Shown: positions 6,309 to 31,524 of the stretch, in pieces | Layout: every line of letters starts with the position of its first letter | Numbering within the stretch: position 1 is the stretch's first letter | DNA from: an uncultured bacterium | GTDB lineage: Bacteria > UBP4 > UBA4092 | NCBI GenBank assembly: GCA_964644695.1 | Contig: CAZXWN010000016.1 | Location: forward strand, 1 to 57,238 | Direction: 5' to 3' | Length of the DNA stretch: 57,238 nucleotides | The notes under the pieces: model-generated | Told to the model about the DNA's origin: nothing | What the model saw: the letters and a program-made list of their open reading frames with translations, nothing else | Databases searched by the model: none | Program-made: the position numbers and the translations under genes

Positions 6309-7064
6309 CTATGGGACTATTTCTGTTTCTACTTCTTTTGTGTCAAAGAGATTATCATCCGTCACAATCTTGATAGTGAGTTTCACTTTACCCGTTTTCC
6401 TGGCAGGTTCAAAAGTCTCTTTATTATTTTCAGGATCTTTCCGATATATGGCCTGGCCATTGGTCACGACCTCGTACCATCCAGATTTATCCTTAAACAG
6501 CTTCTTCCAGGTATTTTCATTATTGTTTATCTTCTTAGGGATTTTCGGAATGGGGGCAGAGGGAGGAGTCTTCGAGTATTTGAAGGGAGGCTTTTGGTTG
6601 ATGATCAAATCATCAATGTGTTTGGCTAATTCAAGCCTATTGGATGATTTACTATATAAATCGATAAAAACATTGTTTCGTGCAAAACAAATATTGGAAC
6701 TCTTTCTTTTGTCATAATTCCAAGACACATCTCCAATTACCCTACTATCATCACTATTCTGATAGAACTGACTATCACTTGCAATTTTATAAGCAGCTTC
6801 AACAGAACTAACAAGTTTATCTTTATCTGGATAGATACCTATAAACAAATAAATCTTATCGCTACTATCGTTCGATAAAAACGTATAACTATTAGCTTCG
6901 AGGAATTTCCTTTGGCTATTGCTTTTCAACTTAAATCCTTCAGGAACTAAATCGTTATATCGTGTAGTATCTATTCCAACAACATAAGTTGCATTAGCTG
7001 ATACGACAGTACTTAATGAAAAGAATACTGTTATTACTATAAGCAGGAGCAATATCTTCTTCAT
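6309..7064 (-). CDS. Secreted hypothetical protein, tandem paralog 4 of 4
   Basis: 251 aa, signal peptide; shares FARNNVF and the C-terminal NQKPPFKY...TDDNLFDTKEVETE block with its neighbours. Confidence 0.85.
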   Translation of the reverse strand: MKKILLLLIVITVFFSLSTVVSANATYVVGIDTTRYNDLVPEGFKLKSNSQRKFLEANSYTFLSNDSSDKIYLFIGIYPDKDKLVSSVEAAYKIASDSQFYQNSDDSRVIGDVSWNYDKRKSSNICFARNNVFIDLYSKSSNRLELAKHIDDLIINQKPPFKYSKTPPSAPIPKIPKKINNNENTWKKLFKDKSGWYEVVTNGQAIYRKDPENNKETFEPARKTGKVKLTIKIVTDDNLFDTKEVETEIVP

Positions 7065-7089
7065 ACTTCAGTTCCTCTAACTAATAAAG

Positions 7090-7839
7090 TTATGGGACTA
7101 ATTCCGTTTCAACTTCTTTTGTATCAAAGAGATTATCATCCGTTGCAATCTTGATGGTGAGCTTTACTTTACCCGTCTTCCTGGCAGGTTCGAAAGTCTC
7201 TTTAGTTCTTTTTTTCCGATATAGGACTTGTCCATTGGTCACGACTTCGTACCGCCCAGAATAATCCTTAAATAAGGCTTTCCATGTATCTTCATTATTC
7301 TTTATCTTCTTAGGGATTTTCGGAATGGGGGCAGAAGGAGGAGTTTTCGAGTATTTGAAAGGAGGCTTTTGGTTGATGATCAAATCATCAATGTGTTTTG
7401 CCAATGCAAGGCTATCTGATGATCTGCTATATAAATCAATAAAAACATTGTTTCGTGCAAAACAAACGCTGATACTTTTTCTTTTGTCATAATTCCAAGA
7501 TACATCTCCAATGACTCTGCTATCATCACTGTTTTGATAATAATAACTATCACTTGCCATTTTTAGAAATGATTCGTAAGAAATAATAAGTTTATTTCTA
7601 TCAGGATAAATACTAATATCTAAACTAATACTATCAGTACTATCTGGTGATAGAAATATATAGCTATTCGCATGTGGAAACCTCATCAGAGTATGGCTTT
7701 TCAACGTAAACCCTTCAGGAACCAAATCGCCATATCGTGTAGTATCCATCCCAACAACATAAACTGTATTAGCTGATGGAACAGCACTTAATGAAAAGAA
7801 TACTGTTATTACTATAAGCAGGGTCAATATCTTCTTCAT
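7090..7839 (-). CDS. Secreted hypothetical protein, tandem paralog 3 of 4
   Basis: 249 aa, signal peptide, same conserved blocks as the neighbours. Confidence 0.85.
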   Translation of the reverse strand: MKKILTLLIVITVFFSLSAVPSANTVYVVGMDTTRYGDLVPEGFTLKSHTLMRFPHANSYIFLSPDSTDSISLDISIYPDRNKLIISYESFLKMASDSYYYQNSDDSRVIGDVSWNYDKRKSISVCFARNNVFIDLYSRSSDSLALAKHIDDLIINQKPPFKYSKTPPSAPIPKIPKKIKNNEDTWKALFKDYSGRYEVVTNGQVLYRKKRTKETFEPARKTGKVKLTIKIATDDNLFDTKEVETELVP

Positions 7840-7864
7840 ACTTCGGTTCCTTTAACTAATAAAG

Positions 7865-8608
7865 TTATGGGACTAATTCCGTTTCAACTTCCTTGGTATC
7901 AAAGAGATTATCATCCGTCACAATATTGATAGTGAGTTTCACTTTACCCGTTTTCTTAGCAGGTTCAAAAGTCTCTTTGGTTCTTTTCTTCCGGTATATG
8001 GCCTGTCCATTGGTCACAACCTCGTACCATCCAGAATAATCCTTAAATAAGGCTTTCCATGTATCTTCATTATTCTTTATCTTCTTAGGAATTTTCGGAA
8101 TGGGGGCAGAGGGAGGAGTCTTTGCGTATTTGAAAGGTGGTTTTTGATTAACGATTAAATCATCAATATATTTGGATATCTCTAAATCTCCGGGACCTTT
8201 CAAGTATACGCGTATAAACACATTATTTCTTGCAAATAACTGCTCTTCTAAACCAGTCATCACCCAAGAATCAGTGCCAACTTTAACAACATCTGAACAA
8301 ATCCGCTTATACTCAACGCTACAAGCATCTTTCAGATATTGTTCAACACTATTAATTAGCATTTCTTTGCTGGGATATATACCAATATCCACTTCAAGAA
8401 ATTTTGAGCTATCTTGCGAAATATACCGGTAACAATTTGCATGAGGATACTGAGATGGCTTGCTCTTTTTTAAGATAAACCCTTCAGGAACCAAGTCGTT
8501 ATATTGTGTAGTATCCATCCCAACAACATAAGTTGCATTAGCTGATGCAACAGTACTTAATGAAAAGAATACTGTCATTACCATAAGCAGGGTCAATATC
8601 TTCTTCAT
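7865..8608 (-). CDS. Secreted hypothetical protein, tandem paralog 2 of 4
   Basis: 247 aa, signal peptide, same conserved blocks as the neighbours. Confidence 0.85.
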   Translation of the reverse strand: MKKILTLLMVMTVFFSLSTVASANATYVVGMDTTQYNDLVPEGFILKKSKPSQYPHANCYRYISQDSSKFLEVDIGIYPSKEMLINSVEQYLKDACSVEYKRICSDVVKVGTDSWVMTGLEEQLFARNNVFIRVYLKGPGDLEISKYIDDLIVNQKPPFKYAKTPPSAPIPKIPKKIKNNEDTWKALFKDYSGWYEVVTNGQAIYRKKRTKETFEPAKKTGKVKLTINIVTDDNLFDTKEVETELVP

Positions 8609-8633
8609 ACTTCAGTTCCTCTAACTAGTAAAG

Positions 8634-9386
8634 TTATGGGACTAATTCCGTTTCAACTTCCTTGGTATCAAAGAGATTATCATCCGTTGCAATCTTGATG
8701 GTGAGCTTTACTTTACCCGTCTTCCTGGCAGGTTCAAAAGTCTCTTTAGTCGTTTTCTTCCGATATATGACTTGTCCATTGGTTATGACATCGCACCGTC
8801 CAGAACAATCTTTAAATAAGTCTTTCCAGGTATTTTCATTATTGTTTATCTTCTTAGGGATTTTCGGAATGGGGGCAGAAGGGGGAGTCTTTGAGTATTT
8901 GAAAGGTGGTTTTTGATTAACGATTAAATTATCAATCTTTTTAGCTATCTCTGTAAAGTCATTTTCCCAACTTAAAACACTCACTAACATATTGTTTCTG
9001 GAATAAACAATTTTATGGTCATTACTTATCCAGACAATGTCTCCAACTACACAGTTTTCAGTTGACACACTATCCCATATTTCACTGATTGTCTTTCGGA
9101 AGGTATTTACAGTCTCAATTAATTTGTCTTTATTGGGATAGATAGCAATCCTTAAAGCATATTTAAGATTATTTTCAGAATCTAACACCTTAGTTTCTCT
9201 TCCATCAGAAAAAAGTAGCGTAGATTCCTTAATAATATTATTCTCATTAGGTGATATTACTTTATTTATTAACTCTTTCGCATCCACACCAGAAACATAT
9301 AAAGTATTTTTTGTCTCACCAAAACAAAGAGTCGCTGTTAATATTAAAAACAAACAGGCACTGATAAAGATAGATACTTTTTTCAT
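8634..9386 (-). CDS. Secreted hypothetical protein, tandem paralog 1 of 4 (distinct N-terminus)
   Basis: 250 aa, different signal peptide, AGGAGG RBS, conserved C-terminal block. Confidence 0.85.
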   Translation of the reverse strand: MKKVSIFISACLFLILTATLCFGETKNTLYVSGVDAKELINKVISPNENNIIKESTLLFSDGRETKVLDSENNLKYALRIAIYPNKDKLIETVNTFRKTISEIWDSVSTENCVVGDIVWISNDHKIVYSRNNMLVSVLSWENDFTEIAKKIDNLIVNQKPPFKYSKTPPSAPIPKIPKKINNNENTWKDLFKDCSGRCDVITNGQVIYRKKTTKETFEPARKTGKVKLTIKIATDDNLFDTKEVETELVP

Positions 9387-9786: not shown

Positions 9787-11235
9787 TCAGTTCCACTGAA
9801 GCATGAATCCGAAATGCCGGATATAACTGAGAATGGGGCTGATATAAATGAACAGGGTTACGGTCAGGATAAGGGTAATAGCCAGTGCCATTTTCAGAGT
9901 CATCGGACTGGCAGGAACCGCCTTATCGGATACCGGTTCAACCATATACATCTGGCGGATAACTCGGAAATAGTAATAAGCGGCAATGGCACTGTTGATC
10001 GCGACCGCCACCGCCAACCAGTAATTAAAGGGATTTTCAACACCTGCATCGACCGCAGCCATGAAAATATAATACTTACCAAAGAATCCCGCAAGAGGAG
10101 GAATCCCCGTCAGTGACAAAAGTAATCCCGCAAAGGCAAACGCCAATCCCGGAGACCGTTTAGACAGTCCCGAATAATCATCGAGTTCGTCACTACCTAC
10201 CATCATCAGAATAATGAAGGCACCCACATTCATAACAAAGTAAGTCGCCAGATAAACCAAAATGGCTTCCCGTGCTAAATCGGTAAAACTGATTGCCAGT
10301 CCTACCAGGATATAACCGGCATGAGCCACAGATGAATAAGCCAACATTCGTTTCACATTATCCTGTAAAACTGCGACCACATTACCTGTCGTCATGGTAA
10401 TAATGGCTAACACACCCAGGAGAGCCGCCCAATCCATATAGAAGGTTGGGAAAACCATCATAAATACACGATAGAAAATAGCAAACCCTACCGCCTTTGA
10501 ACCAACCGATAAGAAGGCCGTAATCGGTGTCGGTGCACCTTCATAAGTATCAGGCACCCACCAATGGAAAGGAACCATAGCAATCTTGAACCCAAATCCG
10601 ACCATGATCAACAACATTGCCACCACAAACACCACCGAGTCGGCTGTTCCATCTCGGAAGAAGGCAAAGATATCACTGAAATTCAAGGACCCTGTCATTC
10701 CAAACAGGTAAGTCATACCAAACAGCATGACCGCCGATGCCACAGAACCAAACAGGAAATATTTCAAAGCCGCTTCACTGGACCGGGCATCTTTCTTATT
10801 AAAAGCGACCAGAATATAGGAGATGAGACTGACGGTTTCAATGGATAACTGAACCATGATCAGGTTCGAAGCTCCAGCCATCAACATCATTCCAAATCCA
10901 AGGAATAACAGTAAGGCATAATATTCCCCGGCATACCCCTTATTTAAGGGGGCGTAATCCAAACTCATTAAGACGATCAGAGCCAGGACCAGACCCGTCA
11001 GATATTTAAAGAAAATCCCGAACTGGTCATAAACAGCCATGCCTGAGAACAATTCCCGAGGCTCTAATCCGGGGTTCAAGGGTAATAAACTGAATAGTAA
11101 AATCCCGATGGTGAGCCAGCCCAGAGTTTTTTTATTCTTAACAAACAAATCCAGGATGACCACCAACAAACCACCCAGAACCAGGATCATCTCCGGGACG
11201 AAGTAAGGCAGACTTTGCAAAGCATTTATTGGCAT
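9787..11235 (-). CDS. nuoN: NADH-quinone oxidoreductase subunit N
   Basis: EAALKYF, FKIAMVPFHWWVPDTYEGAPTP, KRMLAYSSVAHAGY, GFFGKY. Confidence 0.95.
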   Translation of the reverse strand: MPINALQSLPYFVPEMILVLGGLLVVILDLFVKNKKTLGWLTIGILLFSLLPLNPGLEPRELFSGMAVYDQFGIFFKYLTGLVLALIVLMSLDYAPLNKGYAGEYYALLLFLGFGMMLMAGASNLIMVQLSIETVSLISYILVAFNKKDARSSEAALKYFLFGSVASAVMLFGMTYLFGMTGSLNFSDIFAFFRDGTADSVVFVVAMLLIMVGFGFKIAMVPFHWWVPDTYEGAPTPITAFLSVGSKAVGFAIFYRVFMMVFPTFYMDWAALLGVLAIITMTTGNVVAVLQDNVKRMLAYSSVAHAGYILVGLAISFTDLAREAILVYLATYFVMNVGAFIILMMVGSDELDDYSGLSKRSPGLAFAFAGLLLSLTGIPPLAGFFGKYYIFMAAVDAGVENPFNYWLAVAVAINSAIAAYYYFRVIRQMYMVEPVSDKAVPASPMTLKMALAITLILTVTLFIYISPILSYIRHFGFMLQWN

Positions 11236-11259: not shown

Positions 11260-12771
11260 TTAGGGCATCGGTGCTGCATTAATGGCATTCAATAGTCCTG
11301 TAATAACTGGATTTATCAAGTCAATCAGGAGCCGGGGATATACACCCAAAACAAAGGTCAGAACCAATAAGGGGATCACACTCAGGAGTTCCCGGCCATT
11401 GATTTCTGTCATTTGTTCTTTCCACTTTTCATTGAATGGCCCCAGCAGGACCCGTTGCATCATATACAGGATATAAGCGGCAGTAATAACAATCGTCATG
11501 ACTGCGGCGATAGTGAAAGGTTTCCAAACATAGAAAGCACCGACAAAAGTCATAAACTCAGCAATAAATCCGGACATACCCGGCAGACCCAATGAACCCA
11601 AAGCCGCCACACTTAACACAAAGGTATATACAGGGACCTTGGAGGCTAATCCCCCGAAGGCATTCAAATCACGAGTATGACACCGGTCATAGATGACACC
11701 GACGAGCAAGAACATGGCGCCAGTCAATAAACCGTGGGAAATCAACTGGAAGTAACTGCCGAGGAAACCCTGCACCGTAAAGGCAGACAACCCCAACAGG
11801 ACATAACCCATGTGACTGACAGAACTGTAAGCGACCATCTTTTTGAAATCGGTTTGTGCCAGAGCTACGAAAGCACCATACACCACACCGATGACACCCA
11901 ACCACACAAACAGCCAGGAGAAATCACGGGCAGCCTGCGGCAGAATTGGATAAGAAATTCGGAAGAAACCATAAGCACCCATCTTTAAGAGGATGGCGGC
12001 AAGAATAACCGATATCGGAGTGGGCGCTTCAACGTGCGCATCCGGCAGCCAGGTATGAAACGGCCACACGGGGACTTTGATAGCAAACCCGATAAACAAC
12101 GCCAGGAAAACAAGATGAGGAAGAGTCAAGGAATAGAATCGGAAGTCCGAACCCGCAAAGAGTTGTCCACTCTGACCCAGAGCTGCCAGTTCAGGAATGT
12201 TCAAGGTATGAGGACTGGTTGTGAAATACAGGGCGAGGAATCCCAACAACATCAGGACACTGCCGACTAATGTGTACAGGAAGAACTTAATGGCGGCATA
12301 TTCTTTCCGCGGTCCACCCCAGACACCAATCAGGAAGTACATCGGCACCAGCATAAGTTCCCAGAACACATAGAAGAGAACCAAATCCAAAGAAACAAAG
12401 GTCCCCATCATGCCGGTTTCCAGAAACAGATATAATACCCAGTATTCTTTCACTCTCTTATTGATGCCCCAGCTGGCAATACCTGCCAGGAAAGTCACCA
12501 GACCTGTCAAAGCAATCAATGGAACACTGATACCATCAACACCCATGTGATAAAACACATTCACCTGGGGGATCCATGAGAACTTTTCCTGGAATTGGAA
12601 ACCGGGTAAGGCCGGATTAAACTGGACGGCCAATAAGATACTTAACAGACCCACCACAAAGGTGAATCCCAGACCCATCCATTTAATGAGGTCAGGTTTC
12701 TCTTTGGGCATCATCAATACCGCAATCGCGCCGATCAGCGGGATGAAGGTCAATAAACTTAAAATGGGCAT
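11260..12771 (-). CDS. nuoM: NADH-quinone oxidoreductase subunit M
   Basis: FWELMLVPMY, KVPVWPFHTWLPDAHVEAPT, LLKMGAYG, FIAEF. Confidence 0.95.
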   Translation of the reverse strand: MPILSLLTFIPLIGAIAVLMMPKEKPDLIKWMGLGFTFVVGLLSILLAVQFNPALPGFQFQEKFSWIPQVNVFYHMGVDGISVPLIALTGLVTFLAGIASWGINKRVKEYWVLYLFLETGMMGTFVSLDLVLFYVFWELMLVPMYFLIGVWGGPRKEYAAIKFFLYTLVGSVLMLLGFLALYFTTSPHTLNIPELAALGQSGQLFAGSDFRFYSLTLPHLVFLALFIGFAIKVPVWPFHTWLPDAHVEAPTPISVILAAILLKMGAYGFFRISYPILPQAARDFSWLFVWLGVIGVVYGAFVALAQTDFKKMVAYSSVSHMGYVLLGLSAFTVQGFLGSYFQLISHGLLTGAMFLLVGVIYDRCHTRDLNAFGGLASKVPVYTFVLSVAALGSLGLPGMSGFIAEFMTFVGAFYVWKPFTIAAVMTIVITAAYILYMMQRVLLGPFNEKWKEQMTEINGRELLSVIPLLVLTFVLGVYPRLLIDLINPVITGLLNAINAAPMP

Positions 12772-12851
12772 CTAAATCCTCCAGAAATAATCACAACGAT
12801 TCACTTTTTCTGATTCAATTTAATAACACTCCGGTCACCCGGTATATTTTG

Positions 12852-14822
12852 TTACTGTCCAAACGGTGAACTGCCGATATTCTGTAATACGGTGTACCAG
12901 AGAATCAGGGCAAAACCCGCTACCAATAACAAAATGTAATTCTGAATTAAACCCGTCTGAACCAGGCGGGCGATCCGGCTGCTTTTTTCAACGATCCAGC
13001 CGTTTAGTTCAACTAATCCATCGATTACATACTTATCAAATACATAGTTCAGGAAACTTAAACCCCGAACCATATAACCGCAGGCATTAACTAATCCATC
13101 CACGACCCAGACATCGAACGCATATAAAATCGTCGTGGACCATAAGAATGGTTTAATAATACAGAGTTCAAAAATTTCGTCCCAATACCACTTGTTCAGG
13201 GATAGGGTATACAAAGGTCCCATATAGGCGGCCACTCGTGCGGCGGATATGGATTTTTTGTAATACATCAGATATGCCAGACCAATTCCAGAGAACGCCA
13301 GGATAATACTGCCGCTCATAATGGCATAATTCAGATGGATTTCATGGACAGGCAGATAATGGAAAGATTGATGCAGCCAACCCTGTAACCAGTGATGCGC
13401 CATCGGGGTACCCGGGAGACCGGCAGTCAACGAGAAGAAAGCCAGAATCATTAATGGAACGGTCATGACTTTCGGAGATTCGTGTGGATGAATGGAAGTA
13501 TCCCGCTGTTCTCCAAAGAAGGTCATGAACAGGAGTCGGGACATATAGAAAGCCGTCAGGGCTTCAGTAAATAAGCCCACCCAGAACATCAGGGTGTGGC
13601 CCGGAACTGCAGAGTTAAAGGTGGACAACAGGATTTCGTCTTTACTCCAGAATCCAGCAAACGGCGGGACACCCGCAATGGCAACAAAGGCCATAATGAA
13701 TGTCCAGGCTGTGAACGGCATTTTCTTCAGAAGTCCGCCCATCTGGCGTAAGTCCTGTGTTCCTGTCCCGTGGATCACACTTCCGGCACCCAGGAATAAC
13801 AGGGCCTTGAAGAAAGCATGGGTCATCAAATGGAAGGGACCGGCGGCATATCCACCCACCCCTACGGCCATGACCATGTAACCTAACTGGCTTAAGGTTG
13901 AATAGGCTAATACTTTCTTAATGTCATTTTGTGTCAAGGCAATCGTGGCGGCCATGAACGCTGTAAAACAACCAATGTAAGACACCAGCTGCATGGCTTC
14001 CACAGAACTCTGGAACAGGAAGAACATTCGGGCGACCATATAAACACCGGCAGCCACCATGGTAGCGGCGTGAATCAGTGCTGACACTGGAGTCGGGCCT
14101 TCCATGGCATCCGGTAACCAGACATGTAATGGGAATTGAGCTGATTTACCCATCGCACCACAGAACAGCAGCATGGCAGGAATGGCCAGGGAAGCACCCT
14201 TCCAGCTCATAATTTGTTCAGTCAGAGGTTTGTATTGGAAGGTCCCAAATAACCAGAATAATGACAAGATTCCCAGAAGGAATCCCACATCACCAATCCG
14301 GTTTACAACAAAGGCTTTCATACCCGCTTTAGCGGCGGCAATTCGTTCATACTCAAAGGAAATCAACAGGTAGGAACATAATCCCACCAGTTCCCATCCA
14401 ACAAAAATCAACATCAGGTTATCGGCCAGGACAATAGTCAGCATGGAGAAAAAGAATAAAGATAAGTAGGCAAAGAATCGTGAGAAGCGAGGCGCTCCGT
14501 GCATATAACCAACGGAATAGATTTGAATCAAGGACCCGATAAAAGTTACAACGAACAACATCATAGCGGACAATGAATCAACCATGATACCCACTTTAAC
14601 CGGTTGAGTACCAAAATAGAGCCAGGTCCATTCCAGGCTCAAGGTCTGGCCTTTCATCGTGGCTAATATACAGGGGACTGATAAGAGAAAAGAAGAGATT
14701 GCCGCAGCAATCGATATATACGCACTCTTCTCTTTCATCCGTGAGCCCCAGAATATCAGAACCCAGAACGCCAGAAGCGGTATTAGTGGTATTAAATAAA
14801 AATATTGGGTCAATCCAGTCAT
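12852..14822 (-). CDS. nuoL: NADH-quinone oxidoreductase subunit L (elongated lateral helix)
   Basis: GWELVGLCSY, GKSAQFPLHVWLPDAMEGPTPVSALIHAATMV, SKDEIL; duplicated FDxxVxDGLV segment. Confidence 0.95.
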   Translation of the reverse strand: MTGLTQYFYLIPLIPLLAFWVLIFWGSRMKEKSAYISIAAAISSFLLSVPCILATMKGQTLSLEWTWLYFGTQPVKVGIMVDSLSAMMLFVVTFIGSLIQIYSVGYMHGAPRFSRFFAYLSLFFFSMLTIVLADNLMLIFVGWELVGLCSYLLISFEYERIAAAKAGMKAFVVNRIGDVGFLLGILSLFWLFGTFQYKPLTEQIMSWKGASLAIPAMLLFCGAMGKSAQFPLHVWLPDAMEGPTPVSALIHAATMVAAGVYMVARMFFLFQSSVEAMQLVSYIGCFTAFMAATIALTQNDIKKVLAYSTLSQLGYMVMAVGVGGYAAGPFHLMTHAFFKALLFLGAGSVIHGTGTQDLRQMGGLLKKMPFTAWTFIMAFVAIAGVPPFAGFWSKDEILLSTFNSAVPGHTLMFWVGLFTEALTAFYMSRLLFMTFFGEQRDTSIHPHESPKVMTVPLMILAFFSLTAGLPGTPMAHHWLQGWLHQSFHYLPVHEIHLNYAIMSGSIILAFSGIGLAYLMYYKKSISAARVAAYMGPLYTLSLNKWYWDEIFELCIIKPFLWSTTILYAFDVWVVDGLVNACGYMVRGLSFLNYVFDKYVIDGLVELNGWIVEKSSRIARLVQTGLIQNYILLLVAGFALILWYTVLQNIGSSPFGQ

Positions 14823-14826
14823 CTTT

Positions 14827-15138
14827 TTACCATTTCATTAAGTGGATCTTATCGGCGGAAATCGTCCGATGATTCCGGTAGATACAAATTACAATCGCTA
14901 ATCCGACAGCAACAGCCGCTGCGGCAAGAGTCATAACAAAGATAGCAAACACCTGTCCGGCGCCCGTATTCGGAGTAACAAATCGTGAGAAGGCCACCAG
15001 GTTAATATTGGCCGCAGTCAACATCAATTCAATCGACATCAGGATGCCGACGGCATTACGCCGGGTCAGGGTCCCGTAAAGTCCGATACAGAATAATAAA
15101 GCCGCCAGAACCAGAATATGATTTAACGGAATAATCAT
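14827..15138 (-). CDS. nuoK: NADH-quinone oxidoreductase subunit K
   Basis: RRNAVGILMSIELML and GQVFAIFV; 103 aa with 3 TM segments; lies between nuoJ and nuoL. Confidence 0.93.
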   Translation of the reverse strand: MIIPLNHILVLAALLFCIGLYGTLTRRNAVGILMSIELMLTAANINLVAFSRFVTPNTGAGQVFAIFVMTLAAAAVAVGLAIVICIYRNHRTISADKIHLMKW

Positions 15139-15695
15139 TATTCAGCACCTCCATCATCTTTGGCGGGTTTCTCGCGGCGAGATAACACAATAGCACCAAT
15201 CAAGACCGCCAGAAGTAAGACGGAAACGGCTTCAAACGGAAGCAGATAATCAGTCAATAAGGCATTCCCGATCGTATGAGCATTGGCCAATTCAGCATTC
15301 GTCACCGTAGTCAGCCATGAAGCATTGGGGATTTTCCACAACAATAAGGCCAGTACGGTACCCACAGATACAAAGGAGATGAATTTCTGGTGATTGGTCG
15401 CCTTGTTGTCGCCGCCCTGATTGGCCCGCTGAGTCAACATGACGACAAAAGCTATCAGGGTAATGACTGCGCCGACATAGACCATGATTTGGACAAAACC
15501 AAGGAACTCTGCATCTAACATCAAATAAACAACGGCAGCACCCATGGCAACGACCGCCAGAGATAATGCCGCGTGAAAAATATTTTTCATCGTCACCACA
15601 AACAGGGCACCCAAGACCATCACCGCAGCAATCGCGTAGAAGGAAATCAGCTGCACCCATTCCCAAGGTGCTATGTTGTTAAATTGTTCCATCAT
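15138..15695 (-). CDS. nuoJ: NADH-quinone oxidoreductase subunit J
   Basis: AEFLGFVQIMVYVGAV and YLLPFEAVSVLLL motifs. Confidence 0.93.
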   Translation of the reverse strand: MMEQFNNIAPWEWVQLISFYAIAAVMVLGALFVVTMKNIFHAALSLAVVAMGAAVVYLMLDAEFLGFVQIMVYVGAVITLIAFVVMLTQRANQGGDNKATNHQKFISFVSVGTVLALLLWKIPNASWLTTVTNAELANAHTIGNALLTDYLLPFEAVSVLLLAVLIGAIVLSRREKPAKDDGGAE

Positions 15696-15720: not shown

Positions 15721-16788
15721 TCATTGTCCTAAATTCTTAAAGGCCATCCAAATTCCAACCAGTACGATATTGGCAAAAGAAATCGGTAACAGCACTTTCC
15801 ATCCGAACATCATCATCTGGTCAATTCGTAACCGGGGGAAGGTCCACCGGAACCACATCATCAGATAAATCATTGCGATAACTTTCAGCAGCATCCAGAC
15901 GGGACTGGCTCCCCCTAACCCAAAGGGACCATAATATCCACCCAGGAATACGGCAGAAGCAATAGCCGATACCACCACCATATTGGTATATTCCGCCACA
16001 AAGAAAAGAGCAAACTTCATCCCGGTATATTCGGTATGGTATCCGGCAACCAGCTCAGACTCCGCTTCCGGTAAATCAAAGGGGGTCCGGTTCGTTTCTG
16101 CTGTTGCACAGATAATGTAAATAATAAAAGCAATCAATCCCCAGACACTGAAGATATTCCACACCTGGGACTGGGCATCAACAATCGTGGACATCTTTAA
16201 TGAACCGGTTGTCATCACCACCGCAGTCACAGCCAACACCGCAGGAATTTCGTAAGTGATAATCTGGGCAATCGTTCTCATACCACCCAGCATGGAGTAT
16301 TTGTTATTGGAACCATAACCCGCCATGAAAATAATAATGACCGCCGCACTACCAATGGCCATTAAATATAAAAGACCTAAATCCAAATCTATGGGGATCC
16401 ATCCCTTGTGATAAGGGAAACAGGCAAAGGACATGACCGCAGGGACACTGATGAGCATCGGAGCCAGCCAGAAACTGATCAAATCTTTTCCGCGGGGACT
16501 GATGTCCTCTTTCAACAATAGCTTCACAGCATCTGCAACAGACTGGAATAAGCCAAAGGGACCGACACGGTTTGGACCGATACGGCTCTGCATGTGAGCA
16601 GAGACTTTTCGCTCCATCCAAATCAGAAGCATTCCTGCTACGGAAACCATCGCAAGCACAATACCGCCAAGAACGCACATAATGGCCACTTCCGCCGCAA
16701 AACCTGCCCAACTCGGGTCGATTCCACGGGCAGCAGCCAGTGCTTGTACCCACTCCACGATTTTTATGGTTAATTCAATCAAAGTCAT
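15721..16788 (-). CDS. nuoH: NADH-quinone oxidoreductase subunit H
   Basis: ERKVSAHMQSRIGPNRVGP, AETNRTPFDLPEAESELVAGY, FPRLRIDQ. Confidence 0.95.
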   Translation of the reverse strand: MTLIELTIKIVEWVQALAAARGIDPSWAGFAAEVAIMCVLGGIVLAMVSVAGMLLIWMERKVSAHMQSRIGPNRVGPFGLFQSVADAVKLLLKEDISPRGKDLISFWLAPMLISVPAVMSFACFPYHKGWIPIDLDLGLLYLMAIGSAAVIIIFMAGYGSNNKYSMLGGMRTIAQIITYEIPAVLAVTAVVMTTGSLKMSTIVDAQSQVWNIFSVWGLIAFIIYIICATAETNRTPFDLPEAESELVAGYHTEYTGMKFALFFVAEYTNMVVVSAIASAVFLGGYYGPFGLGGASPVWMLLKVIAMIYLMMWFRWTFPRLRIDQMMMFGWKVLLPISFANIVLVGIWMAFKNLGQ

Positions 16789-16808: not shown

Positions 16809-17189
16809 TTAGTTCCATCTAAGGACGCCCTTCTTCCAGGCGTACATTAATCCAACCAGTAATATCAATAAAAAAACGGCCATTTCAGTCAACGCTAACA
16901 TCATTGGCTGGAATGTCCGATAAACTAAAGCCCAGGGGAGTATGAACAGGGTTTCCACATCAAAAATTAAAAAGATAAGTGCCCAGACATAATACCGGGC
17001 ATTAAATTGTATATAGGTAGGACCGCTGGTCTCTTCACCGCATTCGTAGGGAGATATTTTCATGTCCGTTTTAGCACCACGGGCTCGAAGTATCCAAGAG
17101 GTGATGTAGGCGCCGATGCCTAACAGGAGACCAAACAAAAAGAAGATGCCCAGAAGGGCGTAATATCCGCTATTTCCAAAATTGGCCAT
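16809..17189 (-). CDS. nuoA: NADH-quinone oxidoreductase subunit A
   Basis: PYECG, FDVET and YAWKKGVLRW motifs; start moved to ATG 17189 because the longer ORF would span the promoter. Confidence 0.92.
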   Translation of the reverse strand: MANFGNSGYYALLGIFFLFGLLLGIGAYITSWILRARGAKTDMKISPYECGEETSGPTYIQFNARYYVWALIFLIFDVETLFILPWALVYRTFQPMMLALTEMAVFLLILLVGLMYAWKKGVLRWN

Positions 17190-17288: not shown

Positions 17289-17382
17289 ACCTTGACGCAA
17301 TCCAAGCCTTCACTTTACGGATACTTTTGCTTTTAAGGACGGGAAGTTAATGGTTTGTCCAGACCTGAAAATCTTTTTTTAC

Positions 17383-28533: not shown

Positions 28534-31524
28534 TCAATCCATCAAATTATTCCACAGGGGCGCTGCTGTAGGACCGACAAACGGAGTCATGTCATAAGCA
28601 GCCATGCCATTGTTGGTTTTCATGACATACAGGGTTGCCGTAATCGGGTCATAACACACGTTCCCGGCCAGATTTGTATTCGGGTTTGTGGAGGGGAAAA
28701 GAGCCGCGCCTCTCAATACCGGATGATTTTCCGACCATTGATATATCAAAGCACCGTTAACGGTCGTGGAAACACCTGTCGAAAGGAGATAAGGTCCGGC
28801 ATCCAGATGAATCAGGGAACCCATATAATCTTCCATATTCTGCGCCACTAAAGACGTTCCTAATCCACTGACAAACCCCTCATTATTTACCGCAGAGAGT
28901 TGCCAGGAGCTCCCACTCTTCATAACCCGATACAGTTCACTCTGACTGCCTTTTAAGAGAAGAGAAGAAGCCGATTCTACGCCAACGCCATAGATTCCAT
29001 AACTGCCCACGGTAACAGAAGATAAATTAACCGTTTCCGATAACCCAAACTGCGCTCCATTTCCAGTGGTCAATACATGGAACCTGATATGGGATTCTGA
29101 ACTGGTAACAAATAATTTCGTTTCCGCTCCACTGCCCCAGGCTCGGACCACTCGGCCTGCATAGGAAGGAAGGCTGATTTGCGCCGCCAGAGAACAAGTG
29201 GCGGTTTCATTCGCCCACTGGTAGATACGGAATTGCGTACTGTCATAATTACAGGCGTAAATGACACCATCTGCCGCCACATCAAGAGACATCAGATTTC
29301 GGTATCCACCCATCAAACCGGTATTATCCAGTCGGCCTAAATCAGAACCGTCCACACTGTTCATAATGTGGATACTCTGAGTACTATCATTGGAAATCAG
29401 GAGATGTCGTGTTGTGGGATTGAATGCCATGTCCCGGCAATTATCTCCACTGGGCGTAAACCAGCTCGGCGGATTCCCTATCCGGTTTTCCACTGTCACA
29501 TCGTAATGCCGACTCCAACGAGCCATCATTTTTTGAATCGTTGTTTGAACGGGAGTATCCACTGACAATGTAATCGGTAACCGGTTAAAGGGGTCAAAGG
29601 CTTTATCAATAGTAACCGCTAACTGTTCTTTTTTAACCACGGAAGACGGCAGGAATTGACTGTTTTCAGCCCAACCCTGAGTACATCGTAATTGACGGAA
29701 ATACTGGATGGCTTTGAACAAGGGCATCCCGGCAGTCACATCTGTGTAATAGGGCGTAGATGTTTGGGGTTCCGGGCTTCCCGACAACTGCCATACGGCT
29801 CCAGCCAATGCATCACGCGTCAAACTTATTCCTGTTGTGTCCCAGATATATTGGGTGGTTAGGACATCCACGGCCAATGCCCGGCGCAGAGCCAACGCGC
29901 CATCATAATAGGTCATTGTGGCAGATGGATCAAAATAACAGGATTTCAACCAGCTGCTGGTAATGTCCCTTGCGCGAAGCGCCCCCGCCACCGATACCCT
30001 CTGGATAGGCTGATACGCCCAATATGTACTACTGACGTCTTTGAAGGGCATCAGCATGGAACCATAATTGAGCAGCACCTGCTGTAACTGACGAACATTG
30101 ACTTGTCGGGGCTGAATACTAGACTGACAGCTTAACGCCGCTGCTGCACCAGCCGCCTGACCGGTCAACATCACGATCGGTTGAAGACGGGTACTCCCAT
30201 TCACAATATGGCTTGCAGAAATGTTTTTATCACAAGCCATAAATCCGTCTTTACCTTCAGGAATCAGAGTACCATAGGGGATAGTGGGGCTTTGGCTGGC
30301 AGGATAATGCTCTCCCATATTACGATAAGGATTGTCCGCATCATTCACAAAAATAGCGTGGTGATGGTCAATAGAATAATCTCCCACGGCAATACTGGTC
30401 TTATAAAGTGGAGGGAGATTGTTGTCATACCGATTAACAACATCCTGTTGTCTGTAAGTGACCAGACCCTGCATTCTACGGGCTTCCCGAACATAGGGGA
30501 TATGAGGCAAATAGTCCGGAGTCTCATATTCATCCGTAGCTAAACCAATTTGAGGATGTCCATTCGTCTGAATGTAATAAAGAAATCCCAAGGTAATGTT
30601 CTTGGCTCTTTGTAGTGCAGTCTGTCTTGCGTAAGGAGTCATTTCATGTGGAATCACATCCGCATCATTCCCATGGAAGGGCCAATTGATCATATATTTG
30701 TTATTGGGGAGTTTCCCATAACTAATCATGGAAGCCCAGGTGTGAAGGGTGTGGTAATGAATCGTTGTATCGGTACACGGCTCCTTGAAACTTCCATCGT
30801 ATAGGGATGCGTCATAATCGGGAGGTTGAGGAATTAATGTAGTGGGTGTTCCATAATCTTTAAATACCGCACAGTAAGTCAGGTCCTGTACCAGCATATC
30901 CGTCGTATCTTCTGCGGCGGATTCACCAAAGGTAGATTTCGCATCACGTCCTAATCGGTAAGGGATTCCGGCCAGAGGAAGAAGGTCTCCATACTCAGTA
31001 CCATCCAGAGTGACATGGGCTCTGATTTCGACAGTATCCCCGGATGAAGTAACGATGACAGCACCCTTGATAGTATTTTGACTTTGGATAACACTGATAC
31101 AAGTCGAATTGTAGTAAGTCTGGATATTGCCCGTAGTCGAAACCAGTTGCTGCCAGGCCCAGTTCCCGGCTTTAGGTTCAAAACAAAATACGCTGACCCA
31201 GGCCCCAGTCTTAACAGCATTTGCATTCCCACCATAGTATTGTATTATTTTATTGTTTACATCCTTATAGATACCCGTTTCCAGAGTTCCTTGATTCCCA
31301 TCATAACAACTCACGGCAGCAGAACTCATCATGCCGCCCAGCCATGGCGTTTCTTCTACGAGGATAACCTTTACCCCCATCCGTCCGGCTTGAACGGCAG
31401 CCGCCGCACCTCCACAGCCACCCCCAACAACTAAAACATCCGTCGTAACAACACTATAGGTCCAGCCAAAACTGGTCAGAAGGAGAAATATAAGGGAGAC
31501 TATTAAACTCGATAGTTTCTTCAT
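28534..31524 (-). CDS. Secreted FAD-dependent oxidoreductase with SLH-like domains and a C-terminal beta-propeller-like region
   Basis: Signal peptide, DVLVVGGGCGG, YVREARR, NGSTRLQP; SLH-like segments FKDVSSTYWAY and YTDV...FLPSSVVKKEQLA. Confidence 0.82.
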   Translation of the reverse strand: MKKLSSLIVSLIFLLLTSFGWTYSVVTTDVLVVGGGCGGAAAAVQAGRMGVKVILVEETPWLGGMMSSAAVSCYDGNQGTLETGIYKDVNNKIIQYYGGNANAVKTGAWVSVFCFEPKAGNWAWQQLVSTTGNIQTYYNSTCISVIQSQNTIKGAVIVTSSGDTVEIRAHVTLDGTEYGDLLPLAGIPYRLGRDAKSTFGESAAEDTTDMLVQDLTYCAVFKDYGTPTTLIPQPPDYDASLYDGSFKEPCTDTTIHYHTLHTWASMISYGKLPNNKYMINWPFHGNDADVIPHEMTPYARQTALQRAKNITLGFLYYIQTNGHPQIGLATDEYETPDYLPHIPYVREARRMQGLVTYRQQDVVNRYDNNLPPLYKTSIAVGDYSIDHHHAIFVNDADNPYRNMGEHYPASQSPTIPYGTLIPEGKDGFMACDKNISASHIVNGSTRLQPIVMLTGQAAGAAAALSCQSSIQPRQVNVRQLQQVLLNYGSMLMPFKDVSSTYWAYQPIQRVSVAGALRARDITSSWLKSCYFDPSATMTYYDGALALRRALAVDVLTTQYIWDTTGISLTRDALAGAVWQLSGSPEPQTSTPYYTDVTAGMPLFKAIQYFRQLRCTQGWAENSQFLPSSVVKKEQLAVTIDKAFDPFNRLPITLSVDTPVQTTIQKMMARWSRHYDVTVENRIGNPPSWFTPSGDNCRDMAFNPTTRHLLISNDSTQSIHIMNSVDGSDLGRLDNTGLMGGYRNLMSLDVAADGVIYACNYDSTQFRIYQWANETATCSLAAQISLPSYAGRVVRAWGSGAETKLFVTSSESHIRFHVLTTGNGAQFGLSETVNLSSVTVGSYGIYGVGVESASSLLLKGSQSELYRVMKSGSSWQLSAVNNEGFVSGLGTSLVAQNMEDYMGSLIHLDAGPYLLSTGVSTTVNGALIYQWSENHPVLRGAALFPSTNPNTNLAGNVCYDPITATLYVMKTNNGMAAYDMTPFVGPTAAPLWNNLMD

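Follow-up and report, generated by a model that had tools for sequence, protein, structure and literature searches.

The DNA analyzed here, 57,238 nucleotides from an uncultured bacterium (the window; contig C16 of a 28-contig, 3.07-Mb assembly), almost certainly encodes the membrane arm of a second complex I that does without NuoEFG and has its nuoB-C-D-I genes on another contig, C1. With the same assurance, its NuoL is placed in a clade that spans phyla and has two modules in the lateral helix, a doubling that is ancient and almost invariant in length. A doubled helix combined with one nuoM is the normal state of a large family, and the window locus is an ordinary member of it. Judged from sequence comparisons, the product of the one nuoM may fill two middle positions of the arm (L-M-M-N), a reading that we hold tentatively, with slightly more doubt than belief.

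The window operon and its NuoL

The minus strand between positions 9787 and 17300 carries nuoA, H, J, K, L, M, and N, as identified with Pfam and NCBIfam models. nuoA (16809..17189, minus strand; PF00507, with the NCBIfam NuoA models below cut-off) encodes 126 aa from an ATG at 17189; its open reading frame extends to a TTG at 17300, but the ATG is the likelier start, relatives being 125 to 126 aa long. It is followed on the same strand by nuoH (15721..16788; PF00146, E = 2e-117), nuoJ (15138..15695; PF00499), nuoK (14827..15138; PF00420), and nuoL (12852..14822; protein P0001, 656 aa; NF005141, TIGR01974, PF00662, PF00361, and PF01010). An 80-nt spacer (12772..12851, minus strand), with a GGAGG at 12778-12782, 7 to 11 nt before the nuoM ATG, separates nuoL from nuoM (11260..12771, minus strand; 503 aa; TIGR01972, 587 bits against a cut-off of 263.8, and PF00361). 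The last gene is nuoN (9787..11235, minus strand; 482 aa; TIGR01770, 394 bits against a cut-off of 332.6). In agreement with a prior reading of the letters alone (the sequence-only reading), Pfam and NCBIfam found only one nuoM between nuoL and nuoN, and it is the sole nuoM of the cluster.

Neither set of models found nuoB, C, D, I, E, F, or G within the window. An intact nuoB-C-D-I set stands alone on C1 (C1:24723-27535). The NuoB and NuoD encoded there are 55 to 67% identical to the copies in long-helix operons, versus 47 to 56% to this genome's canonical copies, which indicates that the window cluster and the C1 genes together encode a single complex I of 11 subunits that does without NuoEFG. 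The canonical operon, on contig C3, is complete (nuoA-N, with a fused EF). A PF00361 search of the whole genome returned eight antiporter-like genes: three in the window, three in the canonical operon on C3, and two in a Hyf-like hydrogenase cluster on C4. The second nuoM- or mrpD-like gene that the sequence-only reading had proposed to look for is therefore missing from the cluster, while five more antiporter-like genes do exist, on C3 and C4.

Compared with the same genome's canonical copies, NuoL is longer (656 versus 629 aa, +27), and NuoM (503 versus 519 aa) and NuoN (482 versus 491 aa) are slightly shorter. Once 25 extra residues of NuoL are set aside, each of the three lies within about 16 residues of its canonical copy. 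No subunit among L, M, and N of the cluster is enlarged, the 27 additional residues of NuoL being close to the 25-residue gain of its helix. Four secreted paralogs and a 93-aa open reading frame beside the cluster were considered as a hidden subunit and were rejected because they have no counterparts beside the clusters of relatives. Likewise, no conserved extra gene accompanied the cluster in the relatives examined.

The identity of NuoL is given by its scores against the curated models (688 bits for NF005141, cut-off 556; 665.5 bits for TIGR01974, cut-off 407.5), by the presence of the antiporter core, the lateral helix, and the last transmembrane helix, and by the order nuoK-nuoL-nuoM-nuoN. 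In an AlphaFold2 model, the lateral helix (HL) comprises residues 545-622 (12957..13190, minus strand). Module 1 of HL (residues 569-594; 13041..13118, minus strand), with the motif FDxxhhDGxVN, has the sequence FDVWVVDGLVNACGYMVRGLSFLNYV. It is directly adjoined, at an offset of exactly 78 nt, by module 2, the extra module (residues 595-620; 12963..13040, minus strand), with the sequence FDKYVIDGLVELNGWIVEKSSRIARL. The last transmembrane helix, TM16, follows the conserved QTG (residues 625-649; 12876..12950, minus strand; a helix in the model). On the plus strand, the 12-mer AACTAATCCATC occurs at 13011 and 13089, owing to codons that the two modules have in common for a conserved D-G-L-V. 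Gln622 of QTG lies 74 residues after Asp548 of WYWDE; the corresponding distance in the canonical NuoL on contig C3 is 49, a net helix lengthening of 25 residues. An alpha helix rises 1.5 Å per residue, and the 25 extra residues would add about 37 Å to a straight one. The two adjacent 26-residue units, the 78-nt offset, the repeated 12-mer, and the 74-residue spacing had all been described in the sequence-only reading, and all were reproduced here.

Modules 1 and 2 are identical at 10 of 26 residues and 36 of 78 nt, and the duplication is therefore old. Their ungapped BLOSUM62 score of 44 was reached in none of 100000 shuffles of module 2, and the runner-up 26-residue stretch in NuoL scored 17; these results establish that the repeat is real and beyond chance. 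A general repeat search of the window returned 13 families, with the 78-nt NuoL repeat not among them because its DNA identity is too low. Across phyla, FDxxhhDGxVN is kept in both modules, with F, D, D, G, V, and N invariant or more than 90% conserved (alignment A1, of 12 C-terminal NuoL sequences, and alignment A3). Long- and short-helix NuoL have the same Q(T/S)GxxxxY junction ahead of TM16, which suggests that TM16 may use the same docking site in both classes.

The AlphaFold2 monomer model of NuoL, made from a 38-sequence alignment, has a mean pLDDT of 85.1 and contains one unbroken 78-residue helix (545-622), followed by a helix at 625-649. In 10-residue blocks, pLDDT is 70 to 82 up to residue 600 and 51 to 67 beyond it, over module 2 and TM16. 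Looping out of the extra segment, which the sequence-only reading had named as part of a refuting outcome, is not seen in this monomer, in which the pLDDT of module 2 is low and which cannot show docking. The best Foldseek matches were exclusively canonical NdhF, NuoL, and ND5 (TM 0.75 to 0.82). No solved structure with a two-module helix was found by Foldseek or by PDB sequence match, where all matches stop at module 1, and literature searches returned no structure or subunit stoichiometry for a long-helix single-nuoM complex I.

Helix length and nuoM number among relatives

To place the window NuoL among its relatives, the Asp-to-Gln spacing was measured in 78 NuoL of at least 560 aa from 41 related genomes and the best 80 of 296 confirmed loci. 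The 80 loci were found in a species-genome collection with the 5-sequence alignment A2, the window's own lineage being excluded. Two classes resulted: the spacing was 74 to 78 in 53 proteins, including that of the window, and 48 to 50 in all 25 short-helix NuoL, including this genome's canonical copy. No spacing between 50 and 74 occurred among the 78. The value of 47 to 48 that the sequence-only reading gave for standard NuoL is thus replaced by 48 to 50, while the lengthening itself stands; by alignment, the window helix falls in the 74-78 class and not in the class of normal length.

Besides the window, 52 loci in this sample (41 genomes plus the best 80 of 296) have the long helix, and 39 of these contain a single nuoM (L-M-N). 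The mismatch between helix length and nuoM number is therefore not confined to the window operon. Two nuoM genes are present in five of the 52 (L100, with a fragmented M, L110, L115, L129, and L131), and the remaining eight loci end at a contig edge or without an adjacent nuoN. L096, whose nuoL is partial, is a sixth two-nuoM locus. The two-nuoM loci of this sample all share the Chloroflexota-type layout, A-H-J-K-L-M-M-N, and a NuoL spacing of 75 to 78. Nearly all single-nuoM long-helix loci have a spacing of exactly 74. The proposed likeness to 2M enzymes in helix length was borne out, both by these values (74 versus 75 to 78 in six Chloroflexota-type L-M-M-N loci) and by shared ancestry in trees. 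Single-nuoM long-helix loci were found in Chlorobiota, Ignavibacteriota, Bacteroidota, Planctomycetota, Zixibacteria, Calditrichota, Armatimonadota, Deferrimicrobiota, and Chloroflexota, in two Hyphomicrobiales metagenome-assembled genomes (MAGs), and in the window's own class. They include MAG loci of Chlorobiaceae (L055), Ignavibacteriaceae (L064), and Calditrichaceae (L084).

In a NuoL tree, the window NuoL shares a long-helix clade with NuoL of single-nuoM operons (SH-aLRT 99) and with two-nuoM NuoL. In a NuoL tree of 43 rows, built by a quick search with the helix columns removed, two-nuoM NuoL is nested within this clade: (Armatimonadota single-M, (Caldilineaceae single-M, (Anaerolineales single-M, two-M clade))), with supports of 93 to 100. 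A tree holding 23 single-nuoM long-helix rows together was rejected by an AU test (difference in log-likelihood, 148; p-AU, 1.6e-5) in which these rows were set against five two-nuoM and eight short-helix rows, rows of uncertain nuoM count were left free, and the group had been named only after a tree had been seen. The nesting indicates that nuoM number changed within the clade without a change of helix class. In a NuoM tree, the M proteins of long-helix operons group together with a single exception (SH-aLRT 97). Where an operon has two nuoM genes, the M adjoining L is orthologous to the lone M of the closest single-nuoM relatives, and the M adjoining N belongs to a group on a long branch near the base of the long-helix M clade, where the branching order is not resolved. 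The basal placement of this second M would fit either a gain or an ancient duplication.

The two modules are more alike in single-nuoM NuoL (mean identity, 8.7 of 26 residues; n = 40; range, 2 to 13) than in two-nuoM NuoL (mean, 5.7 of 26; n = 6; range, 4 to 7), although all the two-nuoM proteins come from one clade and the modules of two single-nuoM Planctomycetota have diverged just as far. Greater likeness in single-nuoM proteins is what would be expected if both modules bind one protein.

Gene counts were extended to whole genomes of relatives. Exactly three PF00361 genes are present in genome G003, which belongs to the same class and, by marker genes, is 100% complete with 1% contamination; all three lie in the long-helix operon. 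G037 likewise has only three in the genome. Five other genomes checked (three chromosome or complete records and two MAGs) have 5 to 12 PF00361 matches each.

Proposed filling of a fourth position

In the proposed arrangement, the NuoL helix would serve as a ruler spanning four pump-sized positions, with TM16 docked on NuoN as usual. The single nuoM product would occupy both middle positions, giving L-M-M-N, and each NuoM copy would be held by one of the two near-identical helix modules. The enzyme would thereby gain a fourth ion-translocating module, as 2M complex I has, without a second nuoM gene. This arrangement best fits the phylogeny, the NuoM tree, gene counts, subunit sizes, motifs, translation signals, and module similarity taken together, and we put it just short of an even chance of being right. 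It would require NuoM from one gene to make three side contacts (L-M, M-M, and M-N), which counts against it. No complex I relative is known to us in which the product of one antiporter-like gene takes two successive positions. To our knowledge, the second M of all four-pump enzymes described so far is a separate and diverged protein, a hint that the two positions need different proteins.

A broader form of the proposal concerns the family as a whole. In it, a large NuoEFG-less family would have its four pumps set by the NuoL ruler, with one nuoM supplying two of them, and the published two-nuoM enzymes would be a later split, at the gene level, of a state already in place. On the sequence comparisons, we regard this as somewhat less likely than not. 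The proposed family takes in Chlorobiota, Bacteroidota, Ignavibacteriota, Planctomycetota, the window organism's class, and others.

Translation signals were compared in an exploratory way. Shine-Dalgarno strength was taken as the duplex energy with a generic anti-Shine-Dalgarno sequence, with the first start of the longest open reading frame used, uncurated, as the start codon. In the window operon, the energies are -9.3 for nuoM, -2.8 for nuoL, and -5.7 for nuoN; in the same genome's canonical operon, they are -2.8 for nuoL, -5.6 for nuoM, and -6.6 for nuoN. Of 38 long-helix single-nuoM operons, 25 give nuoM the strongest signal of the three genes; among canonical operons, 6 of 18 do. In the long class, the median energies are -3.1 (L), -6.4 (M), and -2.9 (N), and in the short class they are -5.2, -4.3, and -5.7; the L-M spacer has a median of 35 nt in long-helix single-nuoM operons and of 1 nt in canonical ones. 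A naive Mann-Whitney test between the classes gave p = 0.004, in what is essentially a comparison of two clades; the ribosome-binding-site and module-similarity contrasts are each of this kind and are not comparisons of independent samples. Strong nuoM ribosome-binding sites recur in many phyla, and Bacteroidota, Ignavibacteriota, and Chlorobiota showed no signal for any of the genes. None of the five two-nuoM operons has its strongest site at nuoM; four have it at nuoN, and one (L129, with a split nuoN) has it at nuoL. Shine-Dalgarno strength is a poor predictor of protein output. The bias toward nuoM is weak evidence that would fit a need for more NuoM.

The L-M-M-N reading has to be weighed against an enzyme with no fourth pump, in which an L-M-N arm would be held by a longer strap, with TM16 lying beyond NuoN over NuoK, NuoJ, and NuoA towards NuoH, or in which the arm is more curved. 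Gene content is most simply read in this way, since one nuoM is found in 39 of the 52 long-helix loci (from 41 genomes and the best 80 of 296) and G003 and G037 have only three antiporter-like genes, and the arm of enzymes without NuoEFG may differ from the solved ones. We nevertheless consider it, the main rival, rather unlikely, since the nested L-M-M-N operons of the same clade use the same helix length. If 74 residues did no more than span L-M-N plus K, J, and A, a second M should require a further module, yet the spacing in two-nuoM NuoL is just 75 to 78. In addition, the QTG/TM16 junction is unchanged, and module 2 repeats the motif that, in the relevant passage on the E. coli enzyme, adjoins NuoM (PMC3274701). 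A fourth position filled by a protein encoded elsewhere, be it the canonical NuoM from C3, a Hyf-like subunit from C4, or an unrelated membrane protein, would draw on the five further antiporter-like genes of this genome, and the five other genomes checked, with their 5 to 12 matches, all exceed three. G003 and G037, however, have no such gene to spare, so that a separately encoded extra pump, which the sequence-only reading had also offered, fails as a general answer. Nor is there a conserved extra gene with the cluster in the relatives examined, and the neighboring secreted paralogs and 93-aa open reading frame are unmatched there. For the window, we consider this explanation improbable.

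Two further explanations concern the module itself. It could be the relic of a two-nuoM ancestor, now looping out or functionless, and the position of the second Chloroflexota-type M at the unresolved base of the M clade is compatible with an old duplication followed by many losses. A free remnant would be expected to drift or be deleted, yet nearly every single-nuoM member, in more than 10 phyla, keeps the spacing at 74, both motifs are conserved, and the modeled helix is unbroken. A relic is very improbable. A recent duplication or an assembly artifact might be suspected from the exact 12-mer and the regular 78-nt distance between copies; this suspicion is refuted, to the point of near impossibility, by the identity of only 36 of 78 nt and by the same two modules in 52 NuoL of other genomes.

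If one NuoM does fill two places, each turnover of the enzyme would transport one ion more than the number of its pump genes implies, and the complex I ion-to-electron ratio assumed for many anaerobes and phototrophs would be off by one. Helix length instead of gene number would then determine copy number, a principle of assembly new to these enzymes. Should the helix merely strap further along the arm, the "26-residue insertion" could not be used as a four-pump marker in genome surveys. Either way, that marker needs a caveat. For the window alone, the finding is ordinary: one more family member.

Comparison with known complex I enzymes

2M complex I was reportedly defined by Chadwick, Hemp, Fischer, and Orphan in 2018 (ISME J 12:2668). 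Passages in later papers describe it as having a NuoL helix longer by about 26 residues and as lacking NuoEFG (PMC6606698, PMC9040806, PMC7117926, and PMC7419157), and one of them gives the Chloroflexi layout as nuoL-M-M-N with nuoBCDI apart (PMC7117926). The window enzyme resembles this type in that its NuoL helix is about 26 residues longer than usual (spacing 74, versus 75 to 78 in two-nuoM operons), NuoEFG is absent, and nuoBCDI is split from the membrane genes. It differs in that the second nuoM, the defining gene of the type, is absent from the cluster, where a single nuoM lies between nuoL and nuoN. Further, the modules of the window NuoL are nearly alike, whereas the sampled two-nuoM proteins have a diverged second module.

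Canonical NuoL/Nqo12/ND5 proteins (E. coli, PDB 3RKO; the C3 copy) share with the window NuoL the same fold, the WYxDE start, and the QTG/TM16 end. They have a spacing of 49 to 50 residues, versus 74 in the window, and one FDxxhhDGxVN-like module in place of two. In E. coli NuoL, the equivalent motif, around D563/P564, is placed by the passage concerned in the kink region closest to NuoM (PMC3274701).

A helix insertion without an extra pump gene has been remarked before. Yu et al. (2022, mBio, PMC9040806) describe the same insertion in NuoL of two "Candidatus Manganitrophaceae" complexes without an extra pump gene. These enzymes, Complex_I_1 and Complex_I_2, are like that of the window in this described feature and may or may not belong to the same NuoL clade. 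In that passage, the observation is a remark made in passing about one family; here, the mismatch spans a large clade that crosses phyla. The single-nuoM operons L054-L093, which have 11 genes and come from Chlorobiota, Ignavibacteriota, Bacteroidota, and others, have the helix class of the window NuoL, one nuoM, and no nuoEFG in the operon. Most of them keep nuoBCDI inside the operon, unlike the window organism's family, which split these genes off. The window locus has the features of the long-helix single-nuoM family throughout: a two-module helix, one nuoM, NuoL and NuoM placed in its clades, and matching NuoBCDI. It adds a member to a kind of enzyme already remarked upon, and the question of what lies under the extra module concerns the family as a whole.

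NuoEFG genes and tree placement of long-helix loci

Absence of NuoEFG has been ascribed to complex I clusters that combine a long-helix NuoL with a single nuoM. In L061, a locus from a Hyphomicrobiales MAG, NuoE/F/G-like genes directly follow such a cluster, and in L073 and L077 the cluster is followed directly by a second nuoB-C-D-E-F-G block. Because of these three loci, the absence of NuoEFG is not a strict rule across the long-helix single-nuoM family.

L047, L048 and L049, from the related genomes G014, G028 and G036, respectively, encode two-module NuoL proteins that were placed among short-helix NuoL in the tree, at poorly supported forks. In the NuoM tree, the proteins from L047 and L048 were placed inside the clade of NuoM from long-helix operons, and the L049 protein grouped with the canonical NuoM of G000, the genome of the window. 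Doubling of the NuoL helix may have had more than one origin or may have been exchanged repeatedly.

L110 is a Chloroflexota-type, two-nuoM locus (nuoA-H-J-K-L-M-M-N) on a contig labeled as a Pleurocapsa minor MAG, i.e., a cyanobacterium. Its NuoL and both of its NuoM proteins grouped with Anaerolineae in the NuoL and NuoM trees, and its occurrence under a cyanobacterial label is due to misbinning of the contig or to transfer of the genes.

Other genes of the window

Directly downstream of nuoN lie four tandem paralogous genes (6309-9386, minus strand) encoding products of 251, 249, 247, and 250 aa that share 48-78% pairwise identity. All four have a signal-peptide-like N terminus, variable first halves and nearly identical C-terminal halves. 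None matched Pfam or NCBIfam, and no counterparts were found alongside the nuo clusters of relatives.

Elsewhere in the window, residues 1-480 of a 996-aa protein (28534-31524, minus strand) match FAD_oxidored (PF12831), and Pfam gave no hit for the long remainder toward the C terminus. The gene adjoins those for a GHL10 glycosyl-hydrolase-like protein, a CE2/GDSL esterase and a 791-aa O-antigen-ligase/TPR protein.

Antiporter-like genes outside the long-helix operons

In the related genome G037, nuoM is the last gene of the long-helix operon (L046, L053). The third antiporter-like gene, presumably nuoN, sits on a different contig. In G000, the two PF00361 genes remaining besides those of the window and the canonical operon belong to a group 4 hydrogenase cluster (C4:153350-160670, minus strand). 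This cluster resembles Hyf/Hyc; its antiporter-like subunits, of 672 and 479 aa, are encoded together with NuoH-, NuoD-, NuoB-, and NuoI-like proteins.
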